A stretch of DNA of 64,000 bases from Chitinophaga pinensis (GCA_945865645.1 CAMBEI010000003.1:8308-72307), one strand, 5' to 3'. Positions 978-20,959 are shown, counted from the first letter of the stretch. Notes: a model not told the origin generated them from the sequence alone. Made by a program: numbers and translations.

Positions 978-1084
978 ATTTTTTTATAATGTGCTAAAGT
1001 GCTGATGTGTTAATAAACTGATTTTTCAAAATTTTGGATAATCGGCGTTAGTTATTAACTTATCAGCATATTGGCTAATTAGAG

Positions 1085-1735
1085 TTAAGCATATTTTACA
1101 ATTATACTTTCTATCACATTGGCTGCATCCTCACATTTATCCGTTACAATTTCCATTACCTGGTATATTTCTCTTTTTTTAATCACTTCTTTAGCATCTA
1201 GTTCTTCGGCAAAAAGCTTTTCAATACTCATATCAAAAATATCATCCCCCTGATTTTCTATACTATTAATTGCCACCAAAGCATCTGTGATTTTACGCAT
1301 GTCTTTCATATTGCGTAATTCGGTAACTGCATTATGCACGGCAACGCAACCACTAGAAATAATATCGGCCATTTTATGGATGCCGGTATCATTGGGATTA
1401 ACGCGATAAAAATTTATTTTTTTTGCAGAGGCATAAATATAATCAGCAATATCATCTAAGGCAGATGCGAGATAATGTATATCTTCTCTATCGAAGGGGG
1501 TGATAAAATTTTTACCTAATTCGGTAAAAATTTGGTGTGTGTAATCATCATTTTCGTGTTCCATATCTTCAAGCTCCTTGATCAATTTGGCCCGGTCATC
1601 AAAATCGGGTTCATGTACAACTTCTTTAAGTTTTTCTCCCATTTTTACCAACACGCCTACAACACTTTCAAATAGTTGAAAAAATACCCTGTCTTTGGGT
1701 AAGAAAATATTGAGAATTGAATTTAATCCTGACAT
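1085..1735 (-). CDS. DUF47 / PhoU-like phosphate transport regulator
   Basis: FITPFDREDIHYLASALDDIADY and CEDAANVIESIIVKYA motifs; directly upstream of PiT. Start moved to ATG of MSGLNS. Confidence 0.92.
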   Translation of the reverse strand: MSGLNSILNIFLPKDRVFFQLFESVVGVLVKMGEKLKEVVHEPDFDDRAKLIKELEDMEHENDDYTHQIFTELGKNFITPFDREDIHYLASALDDIADYIYASAKKINFYRVNPNDTGIHKMADIISSGCVAVHNAVTELRNMKDMRKITDALVAINSIENQGDDIFDMSIEKLFAEELDAKEVIKKREIYQVMEIVTDKCEDAANVIESIIVKYA

Positions 1736-1793
1736 AATTATAAATTTTGGCAAAGGTTACTTTTTAGTTCAAAAAGTTAAGCCCTTTTAAAAT

Positions 1794-1826
1794 GGTAACG
1801 ATTTATTAACACATAGGTAACATTAA
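1794..1826 (+). promoter_or_regulatory. Pho-box-like 11-bp direct repeat array (3 units)
   Basis: ggtaacgattt / attaacacata / ggtaacattaa; TAAC at 1796, 1807, 1818; upstream of the porin remnant in the same orientation. Confidence 0.65.
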
Positions 1827-1855
1827 ATTGTTATTTCTTTAATCCCAAATGGATT

Positions 1856-2125
1856 ATGCTTAAGAAAAATTACCATTACTGTCTATAATGCTGCTGTTTT
1901 GTCATTTGTTACATGCACAATATTTAAAGGATATGGTTGATACTAGTAAAGTAACAGGTCGTTGTTCACAGTACAATAGGTTTTGGCTATATATATTATT
2001 TAACAGAGAATGTAAAAATTGTTTTCTATTATAACAAAGTAACCAATGAAAAAGCACAACTCCAAGGTTTTACATCTGATGTTAAAGACGATGTACTTAC
2101 ATGCAGGTTGCAATTCAGGTTTTAA
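1856..2125 (+). pseudogene. Internally deleted outer-membrane porin (probably phosphate-selective OprO/OprP-like)
   Basis: ATG at 1856, then a frameshift in an A-run. Signal-peptide-like KLPLLSIMLLFCHLLHA|QYLKDMVDTSK is joined out of frame at about 1960 to STIGFGYIYYLTENVKIVFYYNKVTNEKAQLQGFTSDVKDDVLTCRLQFRF* (beta-barrel C-terminal Phe signal). Family call is from recollection of Chitinophagaceae porin termini. Confidence 0.75.
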
Positions 2126-2130
2126 TACAC

Positions 2131-2191
2131 TTAACAATTAAGTAATATACAGGTAACAATAGCGTAACTTTTAATTCATGTTGGTATAACA
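2131..2191 (+). promoter_or_regulatory. Pho-box-like 11-bp direct repeat array (5-6 units) upstream of TonB receptor
   Basis: TAAC 2132, TAAT 2143, TAAC 2154, TAAC 2165, TCAT 2176, TAAC 2187; TTTG at 2205. Confidence 0.75.
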
Positions 2192-2223
2192 TTCTTCTTG
2201 TTTTTTTGTGGAAATAATTTCTA

Positions 2224-5004
2224 ATGAAAACGCTACTACTAATTGTTACATTCTTGCTCACCATATCTGCATCATTTGCACAAAAAGGAAGAATTGAAGG
2301 AAAGATCACAGATTCAAAAACAGGAACCACAATTGCTGGTGTTACTATTCTAATTAAAGAAACCGCAAAAGGTATTGCCAGCAACTTAGACGGACGCTTT
2401 GTACTGAATGTTGAGCCGGGTAAAAAATATACCCTAATCATCAGCTCTACCAATTATCAAAGCAAAGAAGTAAACGAAATAGAAACCGGTGCCGATGGTA
2501 TTGCTTATGTTGATGTGGCGCTTGATGTAAAAGCAAAAACCGGCGATGAGGTTGTTGTACGCACCACATCTGCCAAAAATGAAAGTGTAAATGCGTTGAT
2601 CACTTTTCAAAGAACTACCAATACGGTAGCATCAGTTATATCTGCCGAAGCTATCAGAAGAAGCCCGGATAAAAATACAGGTGAAGTACTGAAACGTACG
2701 CCCGGAGCAAGTATACAGGAAGGTAAATTTATTGTGATAAGAGGATTAGCCGACCGTTACAACCAAGCAATGCTGAATGGTGTTTTGCTAACCAGCACCG
2801 AGCCCGACCGCAAAACATTTTCATTCGATCTGATTCCTGCATCAATGATTGATAATATTATCATCAATAAAGCATTTGTTCCGGAATTTCCAGGCGAGTG
2901 GGCAGGCGGACTTATTCAGGTTAACACAAAAGATATTCCTTCAAAAAACTTTTTCTCCATTCAGCTTGGTACCGGATTTAATGCGCAAACTATTGGCAAA
3001 CCTTTTTATAAAGACCCCTCCGCTGGAAAAACAGATTGGCTGGGTATTGATGATGGCACCAAGAACTTACCTGCCGGTTATACTAGGAAAGCCGAATTTG
3101 ATTCCACATCATCCGCAACTAAAACAGCCATTGGCAAACAAATGCGTAATGCATGGAGCCCAAAAGAAAGTTCGGCACCATTGAATATTTCCTTTCAGGC
3201 AAATGGAGGCTTTGCCGGTAAAATATTCGGCAAAAATATCGGCGGCATTTTTGCAATCAACTATAACAAAAGCAACAAGTACCTTAAACTTTTAAATAGG
3301 GCAAATGCGATCGATAACATCACCAATGTAGTAAGTGTTATTTCTGATTATAATGATGATAAGTATCAGCAAGATGTTTCTGTGGGCGCATTGGGCAGCC
3401 TAAGTATGCAGTTAAATGCACGCAACAGGGTTTCAGTAAAAGCAATCTTAAATGTAAACTCGCCTAATTCGGTTACACAACGCAACGGCGAAGATTTTTC
3501 AAGAGCAGAGCAGCTAAAAGGCAGTCAGTTTACCTTTAAAGAAAATACTTTTTTTACTGCTCAGCTTGCAGGTGATCACAGCGTCAGCAAGCCGCTAAAA
3601 TTTAAATGGTATGGTGCTTTTAATGTGCTGGATGGTTATACTCCTGATCAACGCCGTATTTTATATTCAAAAACAAGTAATACACAAAACCCTTATACAC
3701 TGCTTCTTTCCAACTCACTTTCGCAACAAAGTGGCAGCCGCATTTACCAAACTTTAAGCGATTATATTTATACAGCAGGCGGCGATCTTAATTATAATTT
3801 TAAATGGCTAAATAAAACGCAAGCTGTAAAAGGTGGTTACATGTTACAGATAAAAGACCGCCTGTATGATGCACAGCTTTTTGCCAATTACCTGCCGCTT
3901 GATAATCCTGCGTTAAGATTATTACCTGCCGGTAAAGTTTTTGCAGCAGAAAATTTTGGAACTGGTACTGATAATAAAATTGCCTTTGATGCCATTAAAG
4001 GAAATACATTTCGTTACATGGCCAATACAATTCTCAATGCCGGCTTCTTGCAACTTGATAACCAGTTTACCGATAAATTAAGAGTGGTGTGGGGCTTACG
4101 CGTTGAAAACTACGACCAGTTAATTGGCAGTGTAAAAAAATGGGACCCACGCCACACTTATTCTAAAGTAACAGATTTTTTACCAGGTGTAAATGCAACT
4201 TATAAATTAAATGATAAAACCAATATCAGGTTATCAGGTTCTCAAACGGTTATCCGTCCTGAGCTTCGTGAACTCTCATCTTTAAACCTGTATGATTTTG
4301 AATTGAATGCTTCTGTTCAGGGCAATCCACTTTTGAAGAGAACCAAGATCGCCAATTTTGATGCCCGTTATGAAATATATCCTAGAGCGGGTGAAGTTAT
4401 CAATGCCGGCATCTTTTACAAACATTTTATCAATCCGATAGAGCAGATATTTAATGGCCTGGGTGGTGGAGCCAGTACATTAAACTATGCCAATGCAAAA
4501 AAAGCATACTCATACGGAGTAGAAGTTGAGATGCGTAAAAAACTTGACTTCGTTAAACCGTTAAAGAATTTCACTTTCCAGGCAAATGCTGCCTACATAT
4601 ACAGTCGTGTAAAAGATCAGGCATTGCAGGTAGACAGGTCTTTACAGGGACAGTCGCCCTACATACTGAATTTAGGAATACTCTATGATCTCGAAAAGTA
4701 TGGCATCAATGCAACGCTTTTGTATAACCAGATTGGAGAAAGAATTTACCTGGTTGGCGATATTGTTGGTGGCGCACCGGACATTTATGAAGCACCCCGT
4801 CCTTTATTCGATCTGCAATTAGCAAAAAAATTACTGAATAGAAAAGCAGAACTGAGGTTGAATATTTCTGACCTGCTTAATCAAACCCAATATTTTTATC
4901 AGAACAGAAGAGGTAAAACAAGTTTTCAAAAAAGCGAAGATGCATATCGCTTTACCAGGAAATACGGAACCAATTTCAGCATAACATTTAATTACTCATT
5001 ATAA
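2224..5004 (+). CDS. TonB-dependent receptor with N-terminal carboxypeptidase-regulatory-like domain
   Basis: Signal peptide, GKITDSKTG..IAGVTI domain, plug motif (IRGLADRYNQAMLNG..FDLIP..MIDNIIINK), aromatic C-terminal beta strand (FSITFNYSL). Confidence 0.95.
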   Translation: MKTLLLIVTFLLTISASFAQKGRIEGKITDSKTGTTIAGVTILIKETAKGIASNLDGRFVLNVEPGKKYTLIISSTNYQSKEVNEIETGADGIAYVDVALDVKAKTGDEVVVRTTSAKNESVNALITFQRTTNTVASVISAEAIRRSPDKNTGEVLKRTPGASIQEGKFIVIRGLADRYNQAMLNGVLLTSTEPDRKTFSFDLIPASMIDNIIINKAFVPEFPGEWAGGLIQVNTKDIPSKNFFSIQLGTGFNAQTIGKPFYKDPSAGKTDWLGIDDGTKNLPAGYTRKAEFDSTSSATKTAIGKQMRNAWSPKESSAPLNISFQANGGFAGKIFGKNIGGIFAINYNKSNKYLKLLNRANAIDNITNVVSVISDYNDDKYQQDVSVGALGSLSMQLNARNRVSVKAILNVNSPNSVTQRNGEDFSRAEQLKGSQFTFKENTFFTAQLAGDHSVSKPLKFKWYGAFNVLDGYTPDQRRILYSKTSNTQNPYTLLLSNSLSQQSGSRIYQTLSDYIYTAGGDLNYNFKWLNKTQAVKGGYMLQIKDRLYDAQLFANYLPLDNPALRLLPAGKVFAAENFGTGTDNKIAFDAIKGNTFRYMANTILNAGFLQLDNQFTDKLRVVWGLRVENYDQLIGSVKKWDPRHTYSKVTDFLPGVNATYKLNDKTNIRLSGSQTVIRPELRELSSLNLYDFELNASVQGNPLLKRTKIANFDARYEIYPRAGEVINAGIFYKHFINPIEQIFNGLGGGASTLNYANAKKAYSYGVEVEMRKKLDFVKPLKNFTFQANAAYIYSRVKDQALQVDRSLQGQSPYILNLGILYDLEKYGINATLLYNQIGERIYLVGDIVGGAPDIYEAPRPLFDLQLAKKLLNRKAELRLNISDLLNQTQYFYQNRRGKTSFQKSEDAYRFTRKYGTNFSITFNYSL

Positions 5005-5028
5005 ACTTTTAAAAATAAAAAAACAGAA

Positions 5029-6483
5029 ATGAAAAAGTACATCTTATTCACAGCAGCTTTAATAACAATAACAGTTACCGGCTGCAGAAAAATTGAAACA
5101 GACGGAGAAATACAGGTTGTTGTTGTTAATGGTGGCGGTACCACAACCACCGGCCAAACCATTACCCTGCAGGGACGTATTAATGCGGATACGATTTTAC
5201 GTAAAGCAAACGCTTACATTTTAAAAGGATTGGTTTACATGGTTGGTAACCACACCATGACCATTGAAGCCGGAACTGTTATCAAAGGATCTTTCAGCGG
5301 CTCTGATGTAGCAGCGTTGGTAATAACCCGTGGTTCAAAAATTATTGCGCCAGGTACAGCTACCGATCCAATTATTTTCACATCACTTTCTCCTAATCCA
5401 CAATCAGGCGATTGGGGAGGAATTGTACTTTGCGGTAAAGCAGGTTACAATTTAAGTTATAATGGTACTGCCGGCCTTTACCAGGTAGAAGGTGGTATTG
5501 ATAATGCCAATGGCGACGGCCTTGCAGGCTCTGGCGATGCAGTAGCACCAACACCGGTACCCGACGATAACTCAGGCGTATTACAATATGTACGTATCGA
5601 ATATGCAGGCTATGCATATCAACCCGATAAAGAGATCAACAGCCTTACCATGGCTGCTGTTGGTCGTGGAACAACTATTGACCATATACAGGTTACTTAC
5701 GCAAAAGATGATGCTTATGAGTGGTTTGGCGGGAGTGTGAACTGCAAATTTTTGATAGCATACAAAACACAGGATGATGATTTTGATACCGATAATGGTT
5801 ACAACGGAAAAGTACAATTTGGTTTGGTAATACGTGATTCATTGATTGCTGATATTTCAACATCAGAAGCTTTTGAAAGCGATAACAATGCAACCGGCAC
5901 TACATCAACACCAAAAACAAATGCCATCTTCAGTAATATCACTGCAATAGGGCCAAGGGCTACTTTAAATAATTATGGTAACACCTTGTTTCGTGCCGGT
6001 GCACAAATCAGAAGAAATTCATCTATATCAATTTTCAATTCAATTATTATGGGATGGCCACAAGGCATTTTAATTGATGCTGCTACCGGAACATCTACTG
6101 CATTAAATATTGAGGACAGTAGTTTACGTTTACGTAATGTTACACTTGCAGGAAATACAGTTAATTTAAAATTTACAGGTACAGCAGGTATTACCATTAA
6201 ATCTGATTCTACATTAACATCGTGGTTTACAGGTGCATTTTATAATAATGATATTCTTGCAAATGCTTCTGATGCTAAGTTAATTCAACCGAATAATTAT
6301 TCAGCTCCCGATCCTACTCCATTTGCAGGTTCAAATGGTAACCAGAAAATTTTAACTGGTGGTGGATTTACCGATGCTAAATTTACCGGCGATACTTTCT
6401 TTGATAAAACAGTTACTTTCCGTGGTGCCATTGCACCTGCCGGACTGCTTACAAGCTGGTGGAAAGGCTGGACAAAGTTCTAA
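5029..6483 (+). CDS. Lipoprotein with right-handed beta-helix (non-SusD TBDR partner)
   Basis: Lipobox ITVTGC; repeats such as YVRIEYAG, EINSLTMAAVGRGTTIDHIQV, DDAYEWFGG, DDDFDTDNG. Confidence 0.8.
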   Translation: MKKYILFTAALITITVTGCRKIETDGEIQVVVVNGGGTTTTGQTITLQGRINADTILRKANAYILKGLVYMVGNHTMTIEAGTVIKGSFSGSDVAALVITRGSKIIAPGTATDPIIFTSLSPNPQSGDWGGIVLCGKAGYNLSYNGTAGLYQVEGGIDNANGDGLAGSGDAVAPTPVPDDNSGVLQYVRIEYAGYAYQPDKEINSLTMAAVGRGTTIDHIQVTYAKDDAYEWFGGSVNCKFLIAYKTQDDDFDTDNGYNGKVQFGLVIRDSLIADISTSEAFESDNNATGTTSTPKTNAIFSNITAIGPRATLNNYGNTLFRAGAQIRRNSSISIFNSIIMGWPQGILIDAATGTSTALNIEDSSLRLRNVTLAGNTVNLKFTGTAGITIKSDSTLTSWFTGAFYNNDILANASDAKLIQPNNYSAPDPTPFAGSNGNQKILTGGGFTDAKFTGDTFFDKTVTFRGAIAPAGLLTSWWKGWTKF

Positions 6484-6499
6484 TTAAAAAGTTCTTATT

Positions 6500-6535
6500 A
6501 AAAAAGCATCTGCCGGTTGGTGGATGCTTTTTTTT
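6500..6535 (+). terminator. Rho-independent terminator
   Basis: aaaaagcatc..gatgcttttt stem followed by a T-run. Confidence 0.85.
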
Positions 6536-6558
6536 AAATTTACATTTCAACCACCAAT

Positions 6559-7065
6559 ATGAAAATATTTTCCTTACTCACTATCATCTCTGTTTTATTC
6601 ATTACCGGCTGTAAACAACAAAACGTAAATAATAAAATATTAGCAACCCCCTTTATCGACTCTGTTATTAAAAAAAGCGACAGCAGTTATCAAAAAGCAT
6701 ATTACAGAAGTGATTTTGTAACCGCTCAATACTATGTAAATAAAAAAAATTCAACCGTATGCCAACTCATGAAAGATTCTGCAAGTAAGATCAGGCAGGT
6801 GGTTATCGTTAAAAATGATACTCGCATTTTTTTCGGCACGTATTATAAGAACGGCCAGCTGCAGGCCGATTTACCTCTAGATGAATTTGGACAATACCAT
6901 GGCACAGGTAATTTTTATTATGAGAACGGAAGCCTGCAAAGCAGCGGCAACTATACGCATGGTTTTAAAACAGGCTCCTGGACAGTCTATGATGTAACCG
7001 GTAAGCTAACCGCCACTGATAACTTCGACAATCATGGTAACCTGGTATCCCATACCCAATTCTAA
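6559..7065 (+). CDS. Lipoprotein with MORN-like (YwqK-type) repeats
   Basis: Lipobox FITGC; YYKNGQL / YYENGSL..G.Y..G.KTGSW..YD..GKL repeats. Confidence 0.75.
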   Translation: MKIFSLLTIISVLFITGCKQQNVNNKILATPFIDSVIKKSDSSYQKAYYRSDFVTAQYYVNKKNSTVCQLMKDSASKIRQVVIVKNDTRIFFGTYYKNGQLQADLPLDEFGQYHGTGNFYYENGSLQSSGNYTHGFKTGSWTVYDVTGKLTATDNFDNHGNLVSHTQF

Positions 7066-7068
7066 TGT

Positions 7069-7124
7069 ATAACATTTACATAATCATTCATTTAACTTAT
7101 GATAACACCGGCTGTGTACTTTAC
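7069..7124 (+). promoter_or_regulatory. Pho-box-like array plus -7-like element
   Basis: TAAC 7070, TAAT 7081, TAAC 7093 (1 nt off phase), TAAC 7103; TTTAC at 7120 (17 nt after the last unit, as at 7900). Confidence 0.5.
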
Positions 7125-7130
7125 AATCGA

Positions 7131-7225
7131 ATAGTTAGTTGCACATATTCAAAAAAATTCTTAGCAATTAGAGCAGGTTTATCATGCTTATCCCACCCGG
7201 TATTCTTATCAGGGTGGCTTTTTTT
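7131..7225 (+). ncRNA. Candidate ~95-nt small RNA
   Basis: Lies between the array/-7-like element and a clear terminator; no convincing ORF. Could instead be the 3' UTR of the upstream gene. Confidence 0.25.
7192..7225 (+). terminator. Rho-independent terminator
   Basis: ccaccc (7193-98) / gggtgg (7212-17) stem followed by T7. Confidence 0.75.
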
Positions 7226-7346
7226 AATATGAAATTAACGTTACGAAATTGTTACTACGCACATTTAAGTCACATTTTTTTTCACATGCCCGAAATAAGG
7301 AATTTTGAAATTATATTCACATTCACTTCACATAAAAACATAACAA

Positions 7347-7838
7347 ATGAAATGGGTTAGAGTACATAATAACGCTGCTTTGGAAAACTTTGAATTGTGG
7401 GATGATCAAATCAAATTAGCCGGGATAGCTTTTAGTAATCATACCAGATTCGCCAGGTTTGTATGTAAGATGAGTAAAAGAATTTTTTCTTTTGAAAAAA
7501 GAGGTTTCCTTTCTGTCAAGGAAATTATCCGAAACGAATATGGTATAAAGATGGGAGAAATGGAAGAAAAAATACCAGGAGGAAAAAGAGGATATATTGT
7601 TTTAGATGGAAAAAAATACAATTATGTGTTTACTAAAAATACATCAGGCGAGTTATTACTCTATGATGAACTAATGCAAAACTGCCTACTGAAATGCAGT
7701 TTCAAGGGTATTTGTAATGGGTTAACAAAAACAAATTCTTTATTAGAAACCAGATTTGCCAGTTTGCTACTGGTCCTTTGCTGGTATACCTTTCAAACAC
7801 ATAGTAATGCCATTACAAAAATGGTTAGCTCACACTGA
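7347..7838 (+). CDS. Hypothetical protein (163 aa)
   Basis: Long ORF with protein-like composition; no family recognised. Confidence 0.7.
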   Translation: MKWVRVHNNAALENFELWDDQIKLAGIAFSNHTRFARFVCKMSKRIFSFEKRGFLSVKEIIRNEYGIKMGEMEEKIPGGKRGYIVLDGKKYNYVFTKNTSGELLLYDELMQNCLLKCSFKGICNGLTKTNSLLETRFASLLLVLCWYTFQTHSNAITKMVSSH

Positions 7839-7865
7839 TTTTATATTTGTATTTACGTTAATTCA

Positions 7866-7921
7866 ATAATATTGACTTAATGCTAAGTTAATAATTTAGT
7901 AACTCCCAATTTTTAATTTGC
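7866..7921 (+). promoter_or_regulatory. Pho-box-like array (4 units) plus -7-like element for the PAP2 operon
   Basis: TAAT 7867, TAAT 7878, TAAT 7889, TAAC 7900; TTTGC at 7917. Confidence 0.7.
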
Positions 7922-7933
7922 ATAGCAAATAAT

Positions 7934-8632
7934 ATGCTGATGCAAAATAAAATTTCCCTCTTTACCCAAAACAAGGTCTACTTTGGCGGTCTTTTACTGA
8001 CCATATTATTTGGAATACTACTTTTACTTTTAAATGGCAAAGCTGCTGCTTTTATTGCACTTAACAGCTACCACCCCTTTTACCTAAATGTTTTTTTTAT
8101 CAACTACACATTTATAGGTGATGGCCTATTTGCATTATGCCTGATAGCCATTTATTTTTTTTACCTTAAAAAAAAACAACAGGGATTTGCTTTACTCTAC
8201 TCTTTTCTAATATCTGGTCTGGCAGCACAAATATTAAAAAACCTGGTTAATTCACCCCGGCCAAAACTTTATTTTGAGGCAGGAACGTATTTAAATTTTA
8301 TAGAAGGGGTGACATTGAGTGGCCGTTCTGGCTTTCCTTCCGGTCACACGGCTACTGCTTTTGCCATTGCTACAGTATTGGTATTAATGATGAAAAATAA
8401 AAATTGGCAGTTTCTTATTTTAAGTGCTGCGCTTTTAGTAGGTTATTCACGTATTTACTTAGCGCAGCACTTTTTGTTAGATGTAATAGTTGGTGCATTA
8501 CTTGGGTGTTTGTCTGGAATTTTAGCTTTTTATATTGCTCAGAATAGAATAAGTATTAAAAAAATACTTAGGAAATTACACCGAGTTCCAAATAAATCGG
8601 CTTCTTCAGCTTCTACTATACAAACGGCATGA
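7934..8632 (+). CDS. PAP2-family membrane phosphatase
   Basis: K..VNSPRP (C1), FPSGH (C2), SRIYLAQHFLLD (C3) motifs; hydrophobic. Confidence 0.93.
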   Translation: MLMQNKISLFTQNKVYFGGLLLTILFGILLLLLNGKAAAFIALNSYHPFYLNVFFINYTFIGDGLFALCLIAIYFFYLKKKQQGFALLYSFLISGLAAQILKNLVNSPRPKLYFEAGTYLNFIEGVTLSGRSGFPSGHTATAFAIATVLVLMMKNKNWQFLILSAALLVGYSRIYLAQHFLLDVIVGALLGCLSGILAFYIAQNRISIKKILRKLHRVPNKSASSASTIQTA

Positions 8633-9012
8633 ATAATGCCATAAATACACACATCGTAAAATACGGTCTTGTTGGTTTAAGTGGTATGGCCATAGATTTT
8701 ACCATAACCTGGCTTTGCAAAGAAAAACTTGGGATAAACAAATATTTGTCAAATGCTGTAGGCTTTTGCTTTGCAGTTACCAGCAACTTTATATTTAACA
8801 GGCATTGGACATTTGAAAGCCATATCCAAGAGTTTACAGGCCAGTTTGCCAGATTTATACTGGTTGCACTAACCGGCTTGTTGATTAATAATCTTTTGTT
8901 ATATCTGTTTGTAAAGAAATTTAAACTAAATTTTTATGTCTTAAAGCTAACCGTTATTGGCTTTGTGTTTTTATGGAACTATCTTTTGAATTTGCTTTTT
9001 ACTTTTAATTAA
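8629..9012 (+). CDS. GtrA family protein (polyprenyl-phosphate-sugar translocase)
   Basis: 127 aa, four TM segments, KYGLVG..G..ID, NFIFNRHWTF, WNYLLN; overlaps PAP2 stop (ATGA). Confidence 0.92.
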   Translation: MNNAINTHIVKYGLVGLSGMAIDFTITWLCKEKLGINKYLSNAVGFCFAVTSNFIFNRHWTFESHIQEFTGQFARFILVALTGLLINNLLLYLFVKKFKLNFYVLKLTVIGFVFLWNYLLNLLFTFN

Positions 9013-9017
9013 AAGTA

Positions 9018-10574
9018 TTGAATTATAAAAATAAAACATGGTTGCTGATTATCATTGCAACAGTTGTACGCTATATTACGGCCTGCAGTGTTGAACTGGG
9101 CAATGATGAAGTGTATTACAGGATGTATGCACAATATCTTCAGTGGAATTATTTTGATCATCCACCCATAGCAGGCTGGCTGATTCGTTTTACAACAGCC
9201 AACCTTTTTTTTGATCATGAATGTTTCATTCGCCTGGGTGCCATCATTTCGGCAGCTATTACAACCTGGTTTATTTTTTTAAGTGGCAAAAAACTGAATA
9301 ATGAATACACAGGTTTTTTGGCAGCGGTCATATATACCTGTAGTATCTACGGAAGTATCATTGCAGGTACTTTTATTTTGCCCGATTCGCCTCAAATGAT
9401 CTGCTGGTCAGCGGGATTGTATGTATTGATTGGACTGACCAGATACAGACATATTAACAGCACAAAAAAAAGAGACCTTTTACTATTTGGTTTTATTGCA
9501 GGCATTGGTATGCTGTGCAAAATACATACAGCATTTTTATGGCTGGGTTTACTATTGTATATCTTGGTGTATAACAGACAATGGCTTAAAGAACCTGCAC
9601 TATATATTTCAGCCATCATTTCCATAGCCTTATTTTACCCGGTAATAAAATGGAATATTGACACTCATTTTGTAACCTACCTGTACCATAGCAAAAGGGT
9701 TGCTGTAGCCAACAGCGGAATAGATATCAACTCCTTTTTAACTTTTAGCGGCGGACAAATATTTTATACCAATCCTGTTATTTTCTTCTTAATCATAGGC
9801 TCAACGATTGCTGCCTTTAAAAATAATTTACCAGTTTCGGTATTTCAAAAAAGATTATTGTTATTTACCAGTTTACCGCTTATTATACTTGCCACTTTTA
9901 TTTCACTATTTAAAAATGTACTTCCGCATTGGACCGGCCCTGCATACTGTGGCCTTATATTATTAACAGCTTGTTACCTCAGTAAGATAAGCTTGACAAC
10001 TGTCTTTGAAAAAACATGGATGCCAAAAATTTTGGTGATTGCCTGTATTTTTCAAATGGTTATCATTATTGCAGGAATTTTACTGATCAACTTTATACCC
10101 GGTACCTTAGGTAAAAAAGAAAAAATACATTTGGGTGAAGGTGATTTTACATTAGACATGTATGGTTGGGGAAATCTGAAAACGCAATTCAAAAAAATAG
10201 CTGAGGCTGATTTAAAAAGGGGTAGTATGAAAAAAGAGGCTGTTATCATTTGTAATAAATGGTTTCCGGCATCGCATATCGATTTTTATGCAGCCATGCC
10301 TTTAAATAAAGATCTGGTTGCCCTTGGTGATACCAATGATATACACCAGTATGCCTGGATAAACAATGAACGCAAAAAACTAAAATCCGGAGATGAGGCT
10401 TATTGTATAGTGCCGTCTAACTATTATGTGGATGTAAAAACAGTTTATGCAGGTTATTTTGAAACCATAGAGCTTCCGCAGATTATTGAACAGAAAAGGA
10501 ATGGCGAAATTTGTCGATATTTTTATATCTGGCGAATGAAAAAATTTATTGAAAAACAAAAGCCTCGTACTTAA
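9018..10574 (+). CDS. ArnT/PMT-like (GT39/GT83-type) membrane glycosyltransferase
   Basis: DEVYY, YFDHPP..GWLI, PDSP, KIH, HW motifs; multi-TM; TTG start. Confidence 0.9.
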   Translation: MNYKNKTWLLIIIATVVRYITACSVELGNDEVYYRMYAQYLQWNYFDHPPIAGWLIRFTTANLFFDHECFIRLGAIISAAITTWFIFLSGKKLNNEYTGFLAAVIYTCSIYGSIIAGTFILPDSPQMICWSAGLYVLIGLTRYRHINSTKKRDLLLFGFIAGIGMLCKIHTAFLWLGLLLYILVYNRQWLKEPALYISAIISIALFYPVIKWNIDTHFVTYLYHSKRVAVANSGIDINSFLTFSGGQIFYTNPVIFFLIIGSTIAAFKNNLPVSVFQKRLLLFTSLPLIILATFISLFKNVLPHWTGPAYCGLILLTACYLSKISLTTVFEKTWMPKILVIACIFQMVIIIAGILLINFIPGTLGKKEKIHLGEGDFTLDMYGWGNLKTQFKKIAEADLKRGSMKKEAVIICNKWFPASHIDFYAAMPLNKDLVALGDTNDIHQYAWINNERKKLKSGDEAYCIVPSNYYVDVKTVYAGYFETIELPQIIEQKRNGEICRYFYIWRMKKFIEKQKPRT

Positions 10575-10672
10575 TTAACGGAGGTTTTGATTTACTAACC
10601 TTTAACAACAGGAAAAGGAGCATCATAAAAATGAAACGATTTTTTGCCAGGCTTTTATACGCCATGATGCAG

Positions 10673-12067
10673 TTATAATATTATTTTTTCACTTTCTTCA
10701 TTCCGGCACTCTTTTGAAGCTGCCAATGCATTTTTTAGAAAACAGCTATACCAGCTTCCCGAATTTTTTACAGTTCTTTTTTGTGTCTTAAAATCTACGC
10801 TAACGAGTCCAAATTTTGGATAATACCCTTCTGCCCATTCAAAATTATCCATCAGGGTCCATACAAAATAACCGTTTACCTTTACCCCTTCTCTTTTTGC
10901 CAGTAAAACCTGCGCAATATAATCCTGCAAAAACCGTACCCTTTTAAAATCTTCAACCCGGTATTCTTCAAAACTATCATTAAATGCTGCACCATTTTCG
11001 GTAATTATTATTTCTTTTATCTCTTTGTAATTGTGCAGTCGTTTTAATGCATTGTATATACTGGGTGGATAAACTTCCCAATCCATCAATGTATGTTCTA
11101 CATTTCTTTTGCTGGCTTTAATAATCTTTGCTTTTACAAATGGCATCAGCGGGGCATAACTTACAAACTCTCGGGTGTAATTCTGCAGACCAATAAAATC
11201 CATTTCGAAGGCCAGTTTTTTTTCGTCGTTCGGATGCATGAAACGTTCAATTCGATCCAGTATTTTTAAATCAGCCGTTGGGTAACCAAGTCCCAGTAAG
11301 GGTTCAATAAACATACGGTTAATCAGTGCATCTACTTTTGCTGCAGCTTTTACATCCTTTTCATTATTATACCGGTAAGGCTCTATATGTGAATATGAAA
11401 AAGTAGTTCCAACTTTACATTCTCCCCTTAGTGATTTTATAATTCTTCCGCCCTCGGCCTGGCATATAGCAGCATGATGGGCTGCAGCCAAAAAACTGCT
11501 TAACCCTTTTTTGCCTGGTGCATGTACGCCCAAAAAATACCCGGCACCGGTAAATACCATTGGCTCGTTAAGTACCATCCAGTACTTTACGCGGTCGCCA
11601 AAATACTTAATACAGCAATCCACAAAATAGCTGAACCAGTGTATTACTTCCCGGTTGACCCAGCCCCCTTTTTGCTGCAGGGCTTCTGGCAAATCCCAGT
11701 GGTACAGGGTTATCCAGGGCTCAATACCAAGCTCTAAACAAAAATCAATTACCCGGTTGTAAAAATCAATGCCCTTGTGATTTACAGCACCAATGCCATT
11801 TGGTAAAATACGGCTCCATGAAATTGAAAACCGGTGATTGGGAATGTTAAGTTTGTATATGAGTGCAATATCCTCTGCATAGTGTTTGTAATAATCACAG
11901 GCGATATTACCGTTATCATTATTGAAAATTTTTTTCTTCTTCCCGGTAAAACTGTCCCAAATAGAAGGGCCTTTCCCATCGGCATTATGACCACCTTCTA
12001 TCTGGTATGCTGCAGTTGAAACACCCCATTTAAAATCCTCTCCAAAATCATTTCTTGTAAAAAGCAT
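10673..12067 (-). CDS. GH1 beta-glucosidase
   Basis: WGVSTAAYQIEG, RFSISWSRI, TLYHWDLP, NEP acid/base, ITENG nucleophile, DNFEWAEG. Confidence 0.95.
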   Translation of the reverse strand: MLFTRNDFGEDFKWGVSTAAYQIEGGHNADGKGPSIWDSFTGKKKKIFNNDNGNIACDYYKHYAEDIALIYKLNIPNHRFSISWSRILPNGIGAVNHKGIDFYNRVIDFCLELGIEPWITLYHWDLPEALQQKGGWVNREVIHWFSYFVDCCIKYFGDRVKYWMVLNEPMVFTGAGYFLGVHAPGKKGLSSFLAAAHHAAICQAEGGRIIKSLRGECKVGTTFSYSHIEPYRYNNEKDVKAAAKVDALINRMFIEPLLGLGYPTADLKILDRIERFMHPNDEKKLAFEMDFIGLQNYTREFVSYAPLMPFVKAKIIKASKRNVEHTLMDWEVYPPSIYNALKRLHNYKEIKEIIITENGAAFNDSFEEYRVEDFKRVRFLQDYIAQVLLAKREGVKVNGYFVWTLMDNFEWAEGYYPKFGLVSVDFKTQKRTVKNSGSWYSCFLKNALAASKECRNEESEKIIL

Positions 12068-12071
12068 AAAC

Positions 12072-13160
12072 TTATTCCCCCAGTTGATTTAATATTTTCC
12101 CTAGGCTTTTTTCTTTTAATTTTTTAATTGAATAAACTCCATCTCCTAATTCTACAGATTTTTTATTATCCGTATTATGATGTTTTTTTATGATCATGTT
12201 AATGATCCGTTGCGTAGTATCCGGGTAGTTCACAATGATTTGCTGATCTGATGCTACCCAATCTTTAATAGTATCCAGGTATTTTTTCTTAAGACTTTTT
12301 ATAACCGGAACGCTCATTGTTTTTAATGCCGCCGCATTGCATTGCTGCTCGTACTGCCCTTTCATGGGTATTACTATCAGTTTCTTTTTTAAAAAGAGGG
12401 CTTCTGCGGGTGTTTCAAAACCGGCGCCACATAACACACCTGTGCAGTTAATAAAGCTTTCGATAAATGCTTCATTATTGATAGGTCTGATATGGATTTT
12501 TTTTACAGAGTATTCTTTTTTTGTATGCTTACTGAACACCTGCCAGTTTATATTTTTTATTTCACCCAGCACTTTAATAATTTTTTCATCGCTGTAGGCA
12601 GGCAAGTAAACAGTATAATGACTTTTATTTTCAGGTTTACTCTCTCGCATCTGGTTTCGAATTACAGGTGTAAAAATATTTTTATCATAAGCGCCAAAAT
12701 GAAAACCGTAGGCCGCCGTAACGGGTGCATAATTATTAAGCACTGCTTTGCCAACGATATCTTTCTTTTTGGGTTTGGGCGATTTTTTGTTGATCACTGC
12801 AGCCTGGTGGCTAAGTCCCACACATTCCTTATTTTGCATTTTACAGGCCCAGGCGCTTACCGGTTCAAAATCATTTATCACCAGGTCGTAATCTGCTATG
12901 GACAAGCTTTTTATTTCTTTGTACAGTTGTCTCAAATTACTTTTTCGGTAAGTGGCAATCAAATCGATGCCGCCGTTTTTTCCAAAAATAAAACTCAGCC
13001 CCTTAAACCTGTATTTTACAGGATAAGGCAAAACCACATCTGCCTGTATGCCACTCACTAAAATATCTAGCTCTCCTTTTTGCTGCAGTATAGGAATTAT
13101 ATCTCTGGCCCTGCTTAAATGTCCGTTACCAGTACCTTGTATAGCATAAAGTATCTTCAT
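12072..13160 (-). CDS. GT-B glycosyltransferase (MJ1255/VC2487-like)
   Basis: MKILYAIQGTGNGHLSRA, NDFEP, GAGFETPAEAL, GQYEQ..NA motifs; TAATG coupling to the upstream gene. Confidence 0.88.
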   Translation of the reverse strand: MKILYAIQGTGNGHLSRARDIIPILQQKGELDILVSGIQADVVLPYPVKYRFKGLSFIFGKNGGIDLIATYRKSNLRQLYKEIKSLSIADYDLVINDFEPVSAWACKMQNKECVGLSHQAAVINKKSPKPKKKDIVGKAVLNNYAPVTAAYGFHFGAYDKNIFTPVIRNQMRESKPENKSHYTVYLPAYSDEKIIKVLGEIKNINWQVFSKHTKKEYSVKKIHIRPINNEAFIESFINCTGVLCGAGFETPAEALFLKKKLIVIPMKGQYEQQCNAAALKTMSVPVIKSLKKKYLDTIKDWVASDQQIIVNYPDTTQRIINMIIKKHHNTDNKKSVELGDGVYSIKKLKEKSLGKILNQLGE

Positions 13161-14017
13161 TATTGTTTCATCAGGTTAAATTCTTCCACCATATTATCAA
13201 ATAGCTCAGCATTATTAAGCTCTTCTTCTTCGCAACTAAATTCAAACAATTGCTTCATTTCATTTTCATTGTATCGGTAAATCTTCCATTCACCATTACT
13301 GTGCTCAAGTGAAGTTAAATTTTCAATCCAATCACCACTATTTAGGTATATTATCTTTCCGTGTTCATTTTCAATTGTACGTATTTCGGGCTGATGTATA
13401 TGTCCGCAAACAACATAATCGTATTGATTGCTGATACCTATATCTGCAGCCGTTTGTTCAAAACTGTTAATGAATTTTACTGCGCCTTTCACACTGTTCT
13501 TTATTTTTTTAGATAAAGAAAGTTTACCTTTTTTAAATATTTTTTCAGAAATAAAATTAGCAAGGTGGTTAATGTGTATCAGGGTATCGTAACCAACAGC
13601 TCCTAGCTTTGCCAGCCATTTACTGTGCTGCATAGTTACATCAAACACATCGCCATGAAAAAACCAGGCTTTTTTCCCATCATCCAGTTCCAGTATTACT
13701 TTATTTACAATTTTAAGAGAGCCCATTTTAAAACCAACAAACTTGCGTAGCATTTCATCATGGTTGCCTGTAATGTAGTATATCTTAACCCCTTTACTCA
13801 TCCAATGCATTAATTGTTTTATAACCTTCATATGGCTCTTGGGCCAGTATCGTTTGCTGAACTGCCAGATATCAATAATATCGCCGTTAAGTATTACCGT
13901 TTTGGGCTTTATTGTTTTAAAATAGAGCAACAACTCTTTTGCATGGCATCCGTAAGTTCCCAAATGCACATCCGACAAAACAAGTATATCCAACTTCCGC
14001 TTTTTTATTTTATCCAT
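13160..14017 (-). CDS. Metallophosphoesterase, LpxH-like superfamily, most similar to PlcP-type intracellular phospholipase C
   Basis: SDVHLG, GDIIDIW, GNHDE, HGDVFD, CGHIH, NSGDWIE motifs; KRYWPKSH and WLAKLGAVGYD segments resemble PlcP; adjacent glycosyltransferase. Confidence 0.8.
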   Translation of the reverse strand: MDKIKKRKLDILVLSDVHLGTYGCHAKELLLYFKTIKPKTVILNGDIIDIWQFSKRYWPKSHMKVIKQLMHWMSKGVKIYYITGNHDEMLRKFVGFKMGSLKIVNKVILELDDGKKAWFFHGDVFDVTMQHSKWLAKLGAVGYDTLIHINHLANFISEKIFKKGKLSLSKKIKNSVKGAVKFINSFEQTAADIGISNQYDYVVCGHIHQPEIRTIENEHGKIIYLNSGDWIENLTSLEHSNGEWKIYRYNENEMKQLFEFSCEEEELNNAELFDNMVEEFNLMKQ

Positions 14018-14176
14018 TAATGGACTTTAAAAAATTTCAATGGCGAATAAAAAGCTGAAAGCATGGGCAGAAAAATTCTTACAGAAAGTTGCAGAAAAAA
14101 ATATTGAATATTTTTCATGACGTAAGATTATGGGTTACTAATTATTGTAAAGTGAAGCAATGTATGTAACCAAATG

Positions 14177-14203
14177 TTTATGCTAATGTTACGCGAGTGT
14201 TAA
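14177..14203 (-). promoter_or_regulatory. Pho-box-like array (proximal) for the phosphoesterase operon
   Basis: + strand TTTA 14177, GTTA 14188, GTTA 14199 (TAAH on - strand); TTTG on - strand 17 nt downstream of the 14188 unit. Confidence 0.55.
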
Positions 14204-14233
14204 GTTTGGATATTGTATAAAAAACAGGGCAGT

Positions 14234-14282
14234 TTTATCAAATTGTTATTTAATTGTTAGCATAACTTTATAAAAAAGTTAA
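14234..14282 (-). promoter_or_regulatory. Pho-box-like array (distal, 5 units)
   Basis: + strand TTTA 14234, GTTA 14245, GTTA 14256, TTTA 14267, GTTA 14278; exact 11-nt period. Confidence 0.65.
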
Positions 14283-14351
14283 CTATTTGTAATAGCAGTC
14301 TTTGTATTGTTTTGTCAACAATATTTGCAGTAATTATAAAAGATACTGTTT

Positions 14352-16772
14352 ATGTACAAATCCACCCGCATCTTCATAAGATTTTTTCTTTTGAATTTAT
14401 TTGTTATTTTGATGAGTAACCTAAGCTGGGCTCAATTGTATTGGAGAACTGACGGTACAGCTGGAACATGGACATCAACAAACTGGGGGTTATCTGCTTT
14501 GCCAACCGGTGGTACCGCCTGGACTTCGGAATCAAATACTATTTTTAATGCAAATTCGACTGTAACCTTTGCTACTGCAAGTATTGGGAATTTAACTGTT
14601 AATAATGGTTTTACTGTTACTATTTCGCCAGCAGGAACATTAGCAACAACAGCAGCAAGAACATTTGATATCGGAACAGGTAGTACTTTAACTTGGACTA
14701 CTCAAAATTGGTCAACTAGTGCAAGCAGTGCTGGTGTCATAAAAAGTGGAGCAGGAACTTGGAATACAGGTGCATCAGGTAATGCTTTCAACGCAACCAA
14801 CTTTGGATTTACTATAAACGCAGGAACTGTGATTGTTAGTGGGAATAATTCATTTGGGGGGTCAAATAGTGTTTTAACTTTAGCTGGTGGTACGATACAA
14901 TCTTCAAGTACAAGAGCTTTTCCAAATAACATAACATTAACTGGTAATCATACACATACTGGTACTGGTAACGCTACATTCTCAGGAACAGTTGGTTTAG
15001 GCGCAGCTACTAGAACAATTACCAATTCAACAACAAGTGGAAGTAGGATATTTTCAGGTATTATTTCTGGAACTTCTGGTTCAGGTTTAATCTTTGCTGG
15101 GGGTGGCGCAGGGCAAATTTATGTAGGCAATGCAAGTAATTCATTTACAGGTACAATAACAATAAATGGTGGCGAAGTTGGATTTGCAAGCGATGGTGCT
15201 TTTGGAAATGCTAACAATACCATTGTAATTGATGGAGGAAGATTAACTTCTTCTTCAACAGCCGGTGCGGCTATTACTTCAACTTGGTCAACTACTCATA
15301 GTATTCAATTAGGTCAAACAGCAGGTACCTCAATAAGCGTTCAATCTAGTACTGGTAATTTAACTTATAATGGTGTGTTATCAGACAAAACATCAAATAC
15401 AGGTATTTTGGTAAAACAAGGTTCAGGTACTTTAAGATTAGGAGGTGTTAGTACATATACTGGTGCAACTTCAATTAATAATGGTACTTTACAATTAATT
15501 ACTGGCAATGATAGATTACCTATAAGTACAGTTTTAAATTTAGGACAAGCTGCAAGTACAAATTTAGGGATATTTGATTTGAATGGGTTTAACCAAACAA
15601 TAGCTGGATTAAATACAACAACAGGTATTGCTATTACAGGTAATAATAGCATTACCTCTACTACAGCAGCTACTTTAACCATTAGTAGTTCTACAAGTAA
15701 TAGCTTTGGTAGCACACTTGCTGCTAATCCTGGAACAATTGGCGGAGCAATTTCAATTGTAAAATCTGGAATCGGAACTCAAACATTTGGAGGAGCAAAT
15801 ACCTATACAGGAAATACAACAATAACCGCGGGTGAATTAAGATTAAATCCTTCTGTTAATACCAGTTTACCCGGCTCGCTGATCATGAATGGCGGTATAC
15901 TGGGCACTTCAGACATTACTGCAACAAGAACGCTTACTTTCTCTTCTTTTGACCTGGCTGATAATTCAAATATTGACCTGAACCCATCAAGCGACCATAC
16001 TATTTCGTTTACGACTGCAGGCATAATTACAGCAGGTAAAATGTTAACCATTTACGGATGGCAAGGCACAGCCGGTGCATCCGGAACAAATGGAAAAATT
16101 ATATTTGGTTCATCTGCAGCAGCATTAACAGCAGGCCAGTTAGCGCAAATACAATTTAACAGTGGCAGCATCAGCAGCCCTGGTACAAATTCTCCTGCAA
16201 TCATACTTGCTACAGGAGAGATCGTACCATCAGCTATTGTATTGGCTGTTAACTTTGAAAATTTTACTGCAATCAGGCAGGATAATAAAACCGCATTATT
16301 AAACTGGAAAGTTGGACAATCTGATAACCTGCAGTCATTCAAAATCCTTCGCTCTGCCAATGGGCGTGATTTTGTTTCCATTGCTACTGTAAATGCAGTT
16401 AGAACACAAAATATCTATCCTTATACCGACAATAATGCTACAGCAGAAAAAATATATTACCGCATTAAAGCAATAGAGATAAGCACCCAAGAATATGTAT
16501 CTGAAATCCGGTTGGTGAATTTGCAAACAACAGGCATATCGGTACTGGTTTATCCAAACCCGGTTTACAATAATCAATTTACTGTTTCTGTTAATAAAGC
16601 CGGAAATAAAACAGTTCAGATATTTTCGGCTACCGGAGGTTTATTCAGGGAATTTTATTTTACTTACCAGGCAAAAGAAATAAGCACCAGCGAGTGGCCA
16701 AGAGGATATTATTTCATCCGGGTTATTACGGCCGATGGCAAAGCGACCGAAAAAAAAATAATAATTCAATAG
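14352..16772 (+). CDS. T9SS-secreted Thr/Gly/Ser-rich protein with autotransporter-associated beta-strand repeats
   Basis: Signal peptide; repeats KQGSGTLRLGGVSTYTGATSINNGTL and KSGIGTQTFGGANTYTGNTTITAGEL; C-terminal VYPNPV..GYYFIRV..KKIIIQ (type A CTD). Confidence 0.9.
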   Translation: MYKSTRIFIRFFLLNLFVILMSNLSWAQLYWRTDGTAGTWTSTNWGLSALPTGGTAWTSESNTIFNANSTVTFATASIGNLTVNNGFTVTISPAGTLATTAARTFDIGTGSTLTWTTQNWSTSASSAGVIKSGAGTWNTGASGNAFNATNFGFTINAGTVIVSGNNSFGGSNSVLTLAGGTIQSSSTRAFPNNITLTGNHTHTGTGNATFSGTVGLGAATRTITNSTTSGSRIFSGIISGTSGSGLIFAGGGAGQIYVGNASNSFTGTITINGGEVGFASDGAFGNANNTIVIDGGRLTSSSTAGAAITSTWSTTHSIQLGQTAGTSISVQSSTGNLTYNGVLSDKTSNTGILVKQGSGTLRLGGVSTYTGATSINNGTLQLITGNDRLPISTVLNLGQAASTNLGIFDLNGFNQTIAGLNTTTGIAITGNNSITSTTAATLTISSSTSNSFGSTLAANPGTIGGAISIVKSGIGTQTFGGANTYTGNTTITAGELRLNPSVNTSLPGSLIMNGGILGTSDITATRTLTFSSFDLADNSNIDLNPSSDHTISFTTAGIITAGKMLTIYGWQGTAGASGTNGKIIFGSSAAALTAGQLAQIQFNSGSISSPGTNSPAIILATGEIVPSAIVLAVNFENFTAIRQDNKTALLNWKVGQSDNLQSFKILRSANGRDFVSIATVNAVRTQNIYPYTDNNATAEKIYYRIKAIEISTQEYVSEIRLVNLQTTGISVLVYPNPVYNNQFTVSVNKAGNKTVQIFSATGGLFREFYFTYQAKEISTSEWPRGYYFIRVITADGKATEKKIIIQ

Positions 16773-16802
16773 GGATAAAAAGATATTGTAAGTATCAAAT
16801 AC

Positions 16803-16835
16803 TATAAAGAAGGATTTAATTAATCCTTCTTTATA
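16803..16835 (+). terminator. Hairpin terminator (14-bp perfect stem)
   Basis: tataaagaaggatt-taatt-aatccttctttata. Confidence 0.75.
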
Positions 16836-16850
16836 ATCTAGCAACAAATA

Positions 16851-16880
16851 AAAAATCAACACATGAAAAATCAACACATG
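16851..16880 (+). repeat. Exact 15-bp tandem duplication containing the start codon
   Basis: aaaaatcaacacatg twice. Confidence 0.95.
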
Positions 16881-20806: not shown

Positions 20807-20959
20807 GTATTTACTAACTATCCCGAACGTTGTTTGCATATTGTTTTGTATTATCAAATTGTTAAGTGAAAACAGTGCATTAACAATAAATTTAGCCCCT
20901 CATGCGATATATGTGCGTCCACAAACGTAATTTTATAATAAGAATTGCAGTATTTAATT

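Follow-up and report, generated by a model that had tools for sequence, protein, structure and literature searches.

A stretch of 64,000 nt from Chitinophaga pinensis (GCA_945865645.1, CAMBEI010000003.1:8308-72307), referred to here as the window and numbered from its first letter, carries between 1.8 and 14.3 kb six arrays of a short direct repeat that recurs every 11 nt upstream of uptake genes, lipid-remodelling genes and a candidate small RNA. We propose, with a probability of roughly 85%, that a PhoB/PhoP-type response regulator uses these arrays as operators, in other words that they form a Pho box of the Bacteroidota. The proposal was first made from the letters of the window, with no database searches (the sequence-only reading), and it gained support from the conservation of the arrays, their geometry relative to the -7 promoter element, an independently trained matrix, the phosphate genes found downstream, and a PhoB-like regulator in the window. 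The window has a G+C content of ~34%, its sequence recurs in freshwater lake metagenomes, and its close relatives carry the names Ferruginibacter or Chitinophagaceae.

The sequence-only reading had described rows of TAAY at an 11-nt period at six sites, and direct reading found rows at all six, with small corrections. On the plus strand, the array at 1794-1826 holds three exact TAAC units (T at 1796, 1807 and 1818), and the array at 7865-7910 has the four units claimed for it, with TAAT at 7867, 7878 and 7889 followed by TAAC at 7900. The array at 2130-2197 reads TAAC at 2132, 2154, 2165 and 2187 and TAAT at 2143, but the remaining frame, at 2176, is a weak TCAT, which is common to close relatives. 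At 7068-7113, TAAC at 7070 and 7103 and TAAT at 7081 are in place, but the frame at 7092 is weak, reading TTAA with a TAAC displaced to 7093. On the minus strand, the row proposed at 14177-14199 is exact (GTTA) at 14199 and 14188, but 14177 is TTTA (TAAA when read on the minus strand); beyond that row, TTAC at 14169 adds a fourth unit in phase and completes an array at 14161-14204 with minus-strand T at 14202, 14191, 14180 and 14169. The second minus-strand row, proposed at 14234-14278, is exact at 14245, 14256 and 14278 (minus-strand T at 14248, 14259 and 14281) but inexact in its other frames, which leaves a weak, unconserved array at 14240-14283. Cores resembling the -7 element were located where they had been claimed, at four arrays (TTTG 2205, TTTA 7120, TTTG 7918 and minus-strand TTTA 14151), all 17-18 nt past a unit.

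To score the arrays, a unit matrix was built from 53 orthologous receptor promoters, with the window excluded, and summed over four units at 11-bp spacing (S4). Across both strands of the 64 kb, or 128,000 start positions, the six highest S4 values fell on exactly the six named sites: 32.0 for 2130-2197, 28.1 for 14161-14204, 19.5 for 1794-1826, 17.7 for 7865-7910, 12.7 for 14240-14283, and 11.7 for 7068-7113. The next best value, 11.1, lay within a coding region. Outside 1.8-14.3 kb no S4 rose above 7, in agreement with the earlier remark that housekeeping promoters lack such arrays. When the period was varied from 7 to 16, S4 exceeded 15 seven times at period 11 and no more than once at each of the others.

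The arrays are far beyond chance. The 6.2 kb of intergenic DNA in the window was shuffled 500 times with its dinucleotide content preserved, and the observed counts were never reached: arrays of at least three units averaged 0.11 per shuffle (3 observed), arrays of at least four units 0.002 (2 observed), and matrix-scored arrays 0.02 (6 observed). TAAY itself proved too loose as a motif core. Its frequency, estimated earlier at about 2% per site, was 1.65% window-wide and 2.4% in intergenic DNA; exact TAAY runs of at least three units at period 11 occurred at only three sites on both strands of the window, all of them named sites; and pairs of TAAY showed no peak at a distance of 11 (37 pairs, versus roughly 38 at other distances). 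TAAC pairs numbered 7, 6 and 7 at distances of 11, 22 and 33, versus about 3 elsewhere. Since TAAC pairs, and not TAAY pairs, were enriched at 11, the signal resides in TAAC(A), and TAACA(TT) replaces TAAY as the core.

The highest-scoring array belongs to the promoter of a TonB-dependent receptor gene, and this promoter is complete and canonical. The last of its six frames is followed after 18 nt by the -7 core TTTG (2205-2208, plus strand), which lies 19 nt ahead of the ATG. We compared it with 80 loci of other species (1.34 Mb in total), fetched with the beta-helix lipoprotein encoded next to the receptor as query. The same array was present at almost every receptor orthologue, at protein identities of 59%-92%, and in about 60 Chitinophagaceae species the arrays were conserved in phase and in position relative to the -7 box. 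When 54 non-redundant receptor promoters were anchored on cTTTGC, six units emerged, with T at -73, -62, -51, -40, -29 and -18 relative to TTTG, and information content gave the unit consensus (C/G)(G/T)TAACATT. The core letters were conserved and the spacers variable; no conservation was seen upstream of -76 in these promoters, and a TTTG at -33 was absent from their consensus.

The period and the spacing to the -7 box were equally constrained. Array clusters in the 1.34 Mb of related loci numbered 158 at period 11, with none at 9, 10, 12 or 13. Of 55 receptor promoters, 45 had a TTTG that started 18 nt past the final unit; among 97 further arrays, 31 had it at 17-18 nt, which confirms and generalises the spacing of 17-18 nt noted earlier in the window. 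The wider box, TAnnTTTG, is reportedly the -7 consensus of Bacteroidota promoters described by Bayley et al. in 2000. As in a Pho box, which has at least two direct repeats at 11 bp, the arrays comprise three to six such units, are oriented with the gene, and replace the upstream promoter element at a fixed spacing.

The genes behind the arrays supply the link to phosphate (Pi). A pattern holding the motif only (TAACA-N6-TAACA-N6-TAAC-N14-TTTG) was used to scan metagenomes and yielded 120 stretches, from which 73 distinct proteins starting within 120 nt downstream were obtained; our start-codon choices matched the called genes in 6 of 8 cases in a cluster look-up. The positions left free in the pattern reproduced the unit flanks (C/G at -2, G/T at -1, T at +5 and +6) as well as the TAnnTTTG box. 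Judging from this emergent box and from receptors with a CarboxypepD_reg domain, the metagenome loci appear to be from Bacteroidota. The 73 proteins included about 15 TonB receptors, 6 Porin_O_P, 5 Na_Pi_cotrans, 4 PBP_like_2 (PstS type), 3 PHO4, 2 PhoU, and one each of polyphosphate kinase, type I phosphodiesterase, PhoU_div and response regulator. Such phosphate families make up an estimated fraction of a percent of a genome, and for this reason the association cannot be due to chance. In a few metagenome matches (L134:3804-3891, L155, L096 and L102), perfect 11-bp tandem repeats, such as (TGTAACATCTT)n, fitted the pattern; they adjoin no gene start and were rejected as Pho promoters.

In the related loci, the arrays preceded the receptor (60), PlcP (8), choice-of-anchor I proteins (4), further TonB receptors (4), a HAD hydrolase (1), a ~443-aa porin-like gene between DUF47 and the receptor (24-29), PAP2 (6 by score, 10 by eye), and a 358-aa metalloenzyme of the alkaline-phosphatase superfamily fold (5). 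About 25 array sites had no open reading frame (ORF) behind them. Phosphate-acquisition genes thus follow the arrays both in the metagenome set and, as PlcP, porin-like and alkaline-phosphatase-fold genes, in the relatives. A dense string of array-bearing units was observed in the cultured Ferruginibacter sp. SUN106 (L046:10001-17400), in the order receptor, lipoprotein, second receptor of 1100 aa with its own array, small RNA, conserved element, 163-aa gene, and an array with the alkaline-phosphatase-fold enzyme.

In the window, the receptor promoter opens an uptake operon on the plus strand (2224-7065), which encodes the TonB-dependent receptor (2224-5004), a Beta_helix_4 lipoprotein (5029-6483) and a MORN-repeat protein (6559-7065), all assigned by Pfam. 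Upstream of it, the three-unit array at 1794-1826 had been read as a porin promoter. This holds for most relatives, in which the porin gene is intact; the same three units followed by cTTTGC precede the ~443-aa gene in 24-29 of them. In the window, only a decayed remnant is left and the -7 box has decayed too: tblastn of the relatives' porin-like proteins against 1601-2400 detected a pseudogene remnant at 1864-2122 (plus strand), which retains ~33 N-terminal and ~54 C-terminal codons, in different frames, but has lost about 345 from its interior, and TTTGC is mutated to TTTAA, with TTTA at +20 of unit 1818. The array is probably the relic promoter of this decayed gene. The relatives' 443-aa protein had no Pfam match even at E = 5, and we call it a porin from its position between DUF47 and the receptor and from our reading of its sequence.

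The four-unit array at 7865-7910 is followed after 18 nt by TTTG(C) (7918-7921, plus strand), 16 nt ahead of the ATG of an operon predicted to remodel the envelope (7934-10574, plus strand). Pfam identified its products as a PAP2 phosphatase (7934-8632), a GtrA-like protein (8629-9012) and a PMT_2/ArnT-like glycosyltransferase (9018-10574), and the substrate would be lipid A or another lipid phosphate. Ten orthologous PAP2 promoters read TAACA/TAACA/TAAT/TAAA at the same positions, and the window array keeps these unit positions, its units having drifted to TAAT.

On the minus strand, the array at 14161-14204 belongs to the promoter of the putative lipid-remodelling operon (10673-14017), with a PlcP-like metallophosphoesterase (13160-14017), a glycosyltransferase (12072-13160) and a GH1 protein (10673-12067) assigned by Pfam and NCBIfam. 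Together, PlcP and a glycosyltransferase remodel lipids when P is scarce (PMC4796936). Relatives share the array and have cacTTTGCaat behind it; the window has the -7-like core TTTA (14148-14151, minus strand) 18 nt past the last unit where relatives have TTTG. Between this promoter array and plcP lies a hydrophobic 33-codon ORF, MKNIQYFFLQLSVRIFLPMLSAFYSPLKFFKVH (14017-14118, minus strand), which is missed by ORF lists with a threshold of 60-80 aa. Its stop overlaps the plcP start (TAATG; TGATG in L052), and relatives with a PlcP identity as low as 79% keep its frame open, the changes being conservative. The weak second array (14240-14283) is offset by 2 nt from the phase of the proximal array and, save in part in L052, unconserved, and its function is doubtful.

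The array at 7068-7113 had been assigned to a candidate small RNA, and behind it we found a structured, conserved element of ~98 nt (7128-7225, plus strand) with the blocks TTCTTAGCAATTAG and ATCATGC and two hairpins, the second a terminator with a T-run behind it. The -7-like core TTTAC (7120-7124, plus strand) lies 17 nt past the last unit. In relatives, the array keeps an exact 0/11/(22)/33 phasing with S4 values of 18-30, and none of the 17 aligned loci lacks an equivalent (T/A/C)TT(G/A)C core. With a covariance model trained on 17 loci, 33 copies were found, all on the plus strand and directly after a lipoprotein or MORN gene; an array lay at most 95 nt upstream in 22 of the 33, versus 1% of random places. 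In the alignment, which as a model-fitted one favours structure, 98% of cells were paired and 8 of 11 pairs had changed on both sides, and none of 500 shuffles and no slid register came close. Rfam gave no match at gathering score in the whole window and only chance-level hits in 6900-7500 (E of 6.5 or worse), and folding of the RNA against the 57 translation-initiation regions of the window produced long, unspecific duplexes only. Two copies (L004:12108-12218 and L005:11581-11693) carry an insertion of ~17-20 nt, TCCTGAGCnnnGCCGAAGGA, itself a small hairpin, in the loop of the first hairpin.

From these features we consider 7128-7225 likely to be an independent, Pi-induced small RNA. Alternatively, it may terminate the receptor operon or act in cis on the 7347 gene as its leader or attenuator, and the array would then be a PhoB site of internal or upstream position; we regard this as less likely. 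Assembled metatranscriptome contigs from four lake runs, which carry neither strand, start sites nor a Pi contrast, bear on both possibilities. Contigs of two runs (6848-7244 and 6979-7218) extend without a break from the MORN gene across the array into the terminator, and the 7347 gene comes after the small RNA in 17 loci, both of which speak for the alternative. However, although contigs cover the small-RNA region in all four runs, they break at 7218-7286, so that coverage ends past the terminator and ahead of the 7347 gene. The -7-like core stands 17-18 nt past the last unit in 17 of 17 aligned loci, conservation of the blocks and of the terminator loop far exceeds a terminator's needs, and the element is present where the 7347 gene is absent (for example in L006, L007, L030 and L071), all of which favours the independent small RNA.

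A nearly invariant element of ~50 nt, aaTGTTACcAAATTGTTACTATGCACATTTAAatCACATTcTTTTtCACA, at 7240-7290 lies 100-180 nt upstream of the gene for an unknown 163-aa protein (7347-7838, plus strand) in all 17 loci having that gene, and has counterparts in 16 related loci (e.g., L002:8640, L019:12216 and L046:15637). Read on the opposite strand, its first part resembles a pair of Pho-type units (GTAACAATTTgGTAAC), and CACA repeats spaced 11-12 nt apart come next; the element may be an operator, a promoter or a leader. The contigs of all four runs also depart from the window just upstream of 7221, with other sequence preceding the terminator, and in two runs contigs fuse 14442 to 16635, omitting 2192 nt that comprise most of the gene for a PATR protein secreted by the type IX secretion system (T9SS). 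Both junctions look like strain-level rearrangements in natural populations.

The presumed binder of the arrays is an OmpR/PhoB-family response regulator at 20100-20792 (minus strand), which has the receiver and the OmpR-type winged-helix output domain of a PhoB protein (Pfam Response_reg, 1.5e-29; Trans_reg_C, 1.5e-22). Among 95 NCBIfam families, its two best were TIGR02154 PhoB (222.2 bits) and NF053854 Bacteroides PhoB (210.5 bits). A PhoR/PnpS-like histidine kinase with HisKA and HATPase_c domains (Pfam) is encoded at 18976-20025 (minus strand); its best NCBIfam models are PnpS and PhoR, both below cut-off. The PhoP/PhoR-like pair that had been noticed at 19-20.8 kb is borne out by these matches, and in relatives the pair adjoins the receptor and lipoprotein genes, so that the regulator has both a PhoR-like partner and a linkage to Pho genes. 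More than 10 relatives share a two-unit site ahead of the regulator gene, which in the window is TAACAatttgaTAATA (20845-20866, minus strand; T at 20864 and 20853); with S2 = 10.4 and 14 equally good sites in the window it is weak, and autoregulation through it is possible.

Several points weigh against the arrays being operators of this regulator. That they are bound, what binds them, and that the genes respond to Pi in this organism are matters we infer. The regulator falls under the curated PhoB cut-offs (222.2 versus 296.2 bits for TIGR02154, 210.5 versus 270 for NF053854), and the kinase is short (349 aa). Several arrays in the window are degenerate, such as 7865 with mostly TAAT, or unconserved (14240-14283), and the one at 1796 precedes a dead gene with a decayed -7 box. 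The taxonomy of the metagenome loci comes solely from promoter type and receptor architecture. Lastly, the lake contigs cover the receptor operon, and so show it to be transcribed in situ, but leave the PAP2 and plcP operons almost uncovered in all four runs, contig depth being a poor measure of expression.

Some of these points would also suit a different OmpR-family regulator answering another signal, an ArcA/ResD-like redox cue or envelope stress, whose sites hold TGTTA/TAACA 11-bp repeats as well; the array repeat does resemble the ArcA TGTTA-type repeat on the opposite strand. The missed PhoB cut-offs agree with such a regulator, as do the closest solved relatives of the window protein in a PDB sequence search, MtrA and RegX3, and the PAP2/ArnT-like operon would fit an envelope-stress regulon. 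The motif of the PhoP regulator of Riemerella anatipestifer, moreover, was most similar to that of Escherichia coli ArcA and was linked to aerotolerance genes (PMC9603813). Yet that Riemerella system is itself upregulated in phosphate starvation (PMC9603813), and RegX3 is named as the mycobacterial Pho regulator (PMC4415409). The genes directly behind the motif are overwhelmingly phosphate transporters, porins, binding proteins and PlcP, and no respiratory genes occurred among the downstream families of the metagenome scan. Control by such another regulator seems improbable to us. That the arrays arose by chance in AT-rich intergenic DNA, or are tandem repeats or phased DNA bends to which no particular protein binds, is for practical purposes already refuted: TAAY is common, its pairs are not enriched at 11 window-wide, and a few metagenome matches (L134, L155 and L096) are plain tandem repeats, but the shuffles never reached the observed counts, core letters are conserved against variable spacers at a period of strictly 11, the arrays keep a fixed orientation and -7 distance, and their link to phosphate genes is strong.

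If the arrays are Pho operators, a mechanism modelled on E. coli PhoB and Bacillus subtilis PhoP can be outlined. Under phosphate limitation, the kinase would phosphorylate the regulator, which would oligomerise on the arrays and recruit RNA polymerase. Each 11-bp unit, (C/G)(G/T)TAACATT(N)(N), would bind one winged-helix domain, and the head-to-tail units on one helix face would bring in two dimers where there are four of them and three where there are six. The unit nearest the promoter, 18 nt upstream of TTTG in TAnnTTTG, stands where the missing -33 element would be. The predicted targets in the window are the receptor/beta-helix-lipoprotein operon, the ~98-nt RNA, the PAP2-GtrA-ArnT-like operon, and the operon of the small ORF, plcP, glycosyltransferase and GH1 genes; in relatives, a porin, phosphatase-like enzymes and further receptors would be added.

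Tentatively, and at somewhat less than even odds, we suggest a wider picture made up of three parts: an undescribed Pho promoter architecture of the Bacteroidota, in which as many as six TAACATT units stand at a set 18 nt from the -7 box; a new Chitinophagaceae family of ~98-nt RNAs that would extend the response post-transcriptionally; and the removal and replacement of lipid phosphate in the envelope through the PAP2 and plcP operons. Much organic phosphorus in soils, lakes and the gut is recycled by Bacteroidota, whose Pho regulon has so far been charted only through expression studies. The TAACATT unit, the 11-bp phasing and the 18 nt to TAnnTTTG form a testable rule for reading Pho regulons from genomes and metagenomes. 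Unexpected members under this rule are the beta-helix lipoprotein/receptor pair, the PAP2-GtrA-ArnT-like operon, the plcP-coupled 33-codon gene and the small RNA. The arrays also offer Pi-switchable promoters for a phylum with few genetic tools, and Ferruginibacter sp. SUN106, a cultured relative with its dense array-bearing string, is convenient for experiments.

Other genes in the window lie near the arrays. A Pit-type phosphate transporter gene runs off the window end (from 1 to near 1078, minus strand; Pfam; its translation has GFHDAANSIAT) and is accompanied by a DUF47/PhoU_div gene (1085-1753, minus strand; Pfam). No co-oriented array was found at these two genes (1-1753, minus strand), which are divergent from the arrays, and their regulon membership is only putative. 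They are well covered by metatranscriptome contigs, with a word depth of up to 27, and PhoU_div and PHO4 genes do sit behind arrays in some metagenome loci. A T9SS-secreted PATR protein and a choice-of-anchor I protein are encoded at 14352-18386.

Compared with known systems, the arrays share features with Pho boxes of several phyla. Work of the Hulett laboratory on B. subtilis PhoP is said to have found boxes of TT(A/T/C)ACA repeats with 11-bp periodicity, four or more per activated promoter. The likeness extends to a near-identical hexamer (TTAACA), 11-bp direct repeats, several dimers and a position on the coding strand of activated promoters; the B. subtilis system differs in its phylum and its sigma-A -35/-10 promoters, whereas here a TAnnTTTG box stands at a fixed 18 nt and there are up to six units. 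Cyanobacterial Pho boxes, reportedly described by Su et al. in 2007, are said to consist of three tandem 8-bp PyTTAAPyPy(T/A) repeats with 3-bp linkers, bound by SphR/PhoB. They resemble the arrays in having three or more TTAA-containing units at an 11-bp period upstream of pst/pho genes, and differ in phylum, flanking preferences and promoter context. Cyanobacteria also have PsiR1, a small RNA induced by phosphate starvation. Like the 7128-7225 RNA, this type is a short non-coding transcript under a Pho-box promoter beside Pho-regulon genes, but the two have no similarity in sequence or structure (no Rfam match).

The E. coli Pho box consists of two 11-bp direct repeats that are bound by PhoB and replace the -35 element (PMC4415409). 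Shared with the arrays are the 11-bp direct repeats, their head-to-tail order and the replaced upstream element, and the E. coli targets are pst, porin and phosphatase genes. The unit differs, being of the CTGTCAT type versus TAACATT here, and the minimal E. coli box usually has two units; in E. coli, PhoB contacts region 4 of sigma-70.

Within the Bacteroidota, Flavobacterium johnsoniae offers the closest match in gene content. Pi depletion there raises expression of the receptor Fjoh_0545, of its partner lipoprotein and of PlcP by 2^8- to 2^10-fold (PMC8115612), and Pfam domains of the window receptor and lipoprotein agree with those of Fjoh_0545/0546. The cluster as a whole is alike, with a Plug/CarbopepD_reg_2/OMP_b-brl_3 receptor, a beta-helix lipoprotein, nearby phoBR, a glycosyltransferase and PlcP, all strongly induced by Pi depletion in that species, orthology here being a matter of domain content and synteny and not of sequence comparison. 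The words 'motif', 'promoter' and 'binding site' are absent from that paper, which describes no operator motif. In Bacteroides fragilis, PhoB shifts a 512-bp pst promoter fragment in an electrophoretic mobility shift assay, with no consensus given (PMC3547664).

The closest precedent for the motif comes from Riemerella in the same phylum, and beyond this one motif the openly searchable literature holds no operator consensus for a Bacteroidota Pho box. DNA affinity purification sequencing of the R. anatipestifer PhoP gave TTTAACA as the most conserved letters, and both its own operon and a TonB-dependent receptor gene are preceded by sites that this OmpR-family protein binds (PMC9603813). That report describes a single motif, discussed for virulence and aerotolerance; 'direct repeat' occurs 0 times in it, and 11-bp phased arrays, a fixed -7 spacing or a phosphate-acquisition regulon are not described. 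The description of the window motif as de novo therefore has to be narrowed, since its core is precedented by TTTAACA, while the phased-array architecture appears undescribed in the searchable literature. Taken with the E. coli and other Pho boxes, the window arrays represent a phylum-specific addition to a well-known class, and what they would newly contribute is the architecture rule, the regulon members and the RNA.

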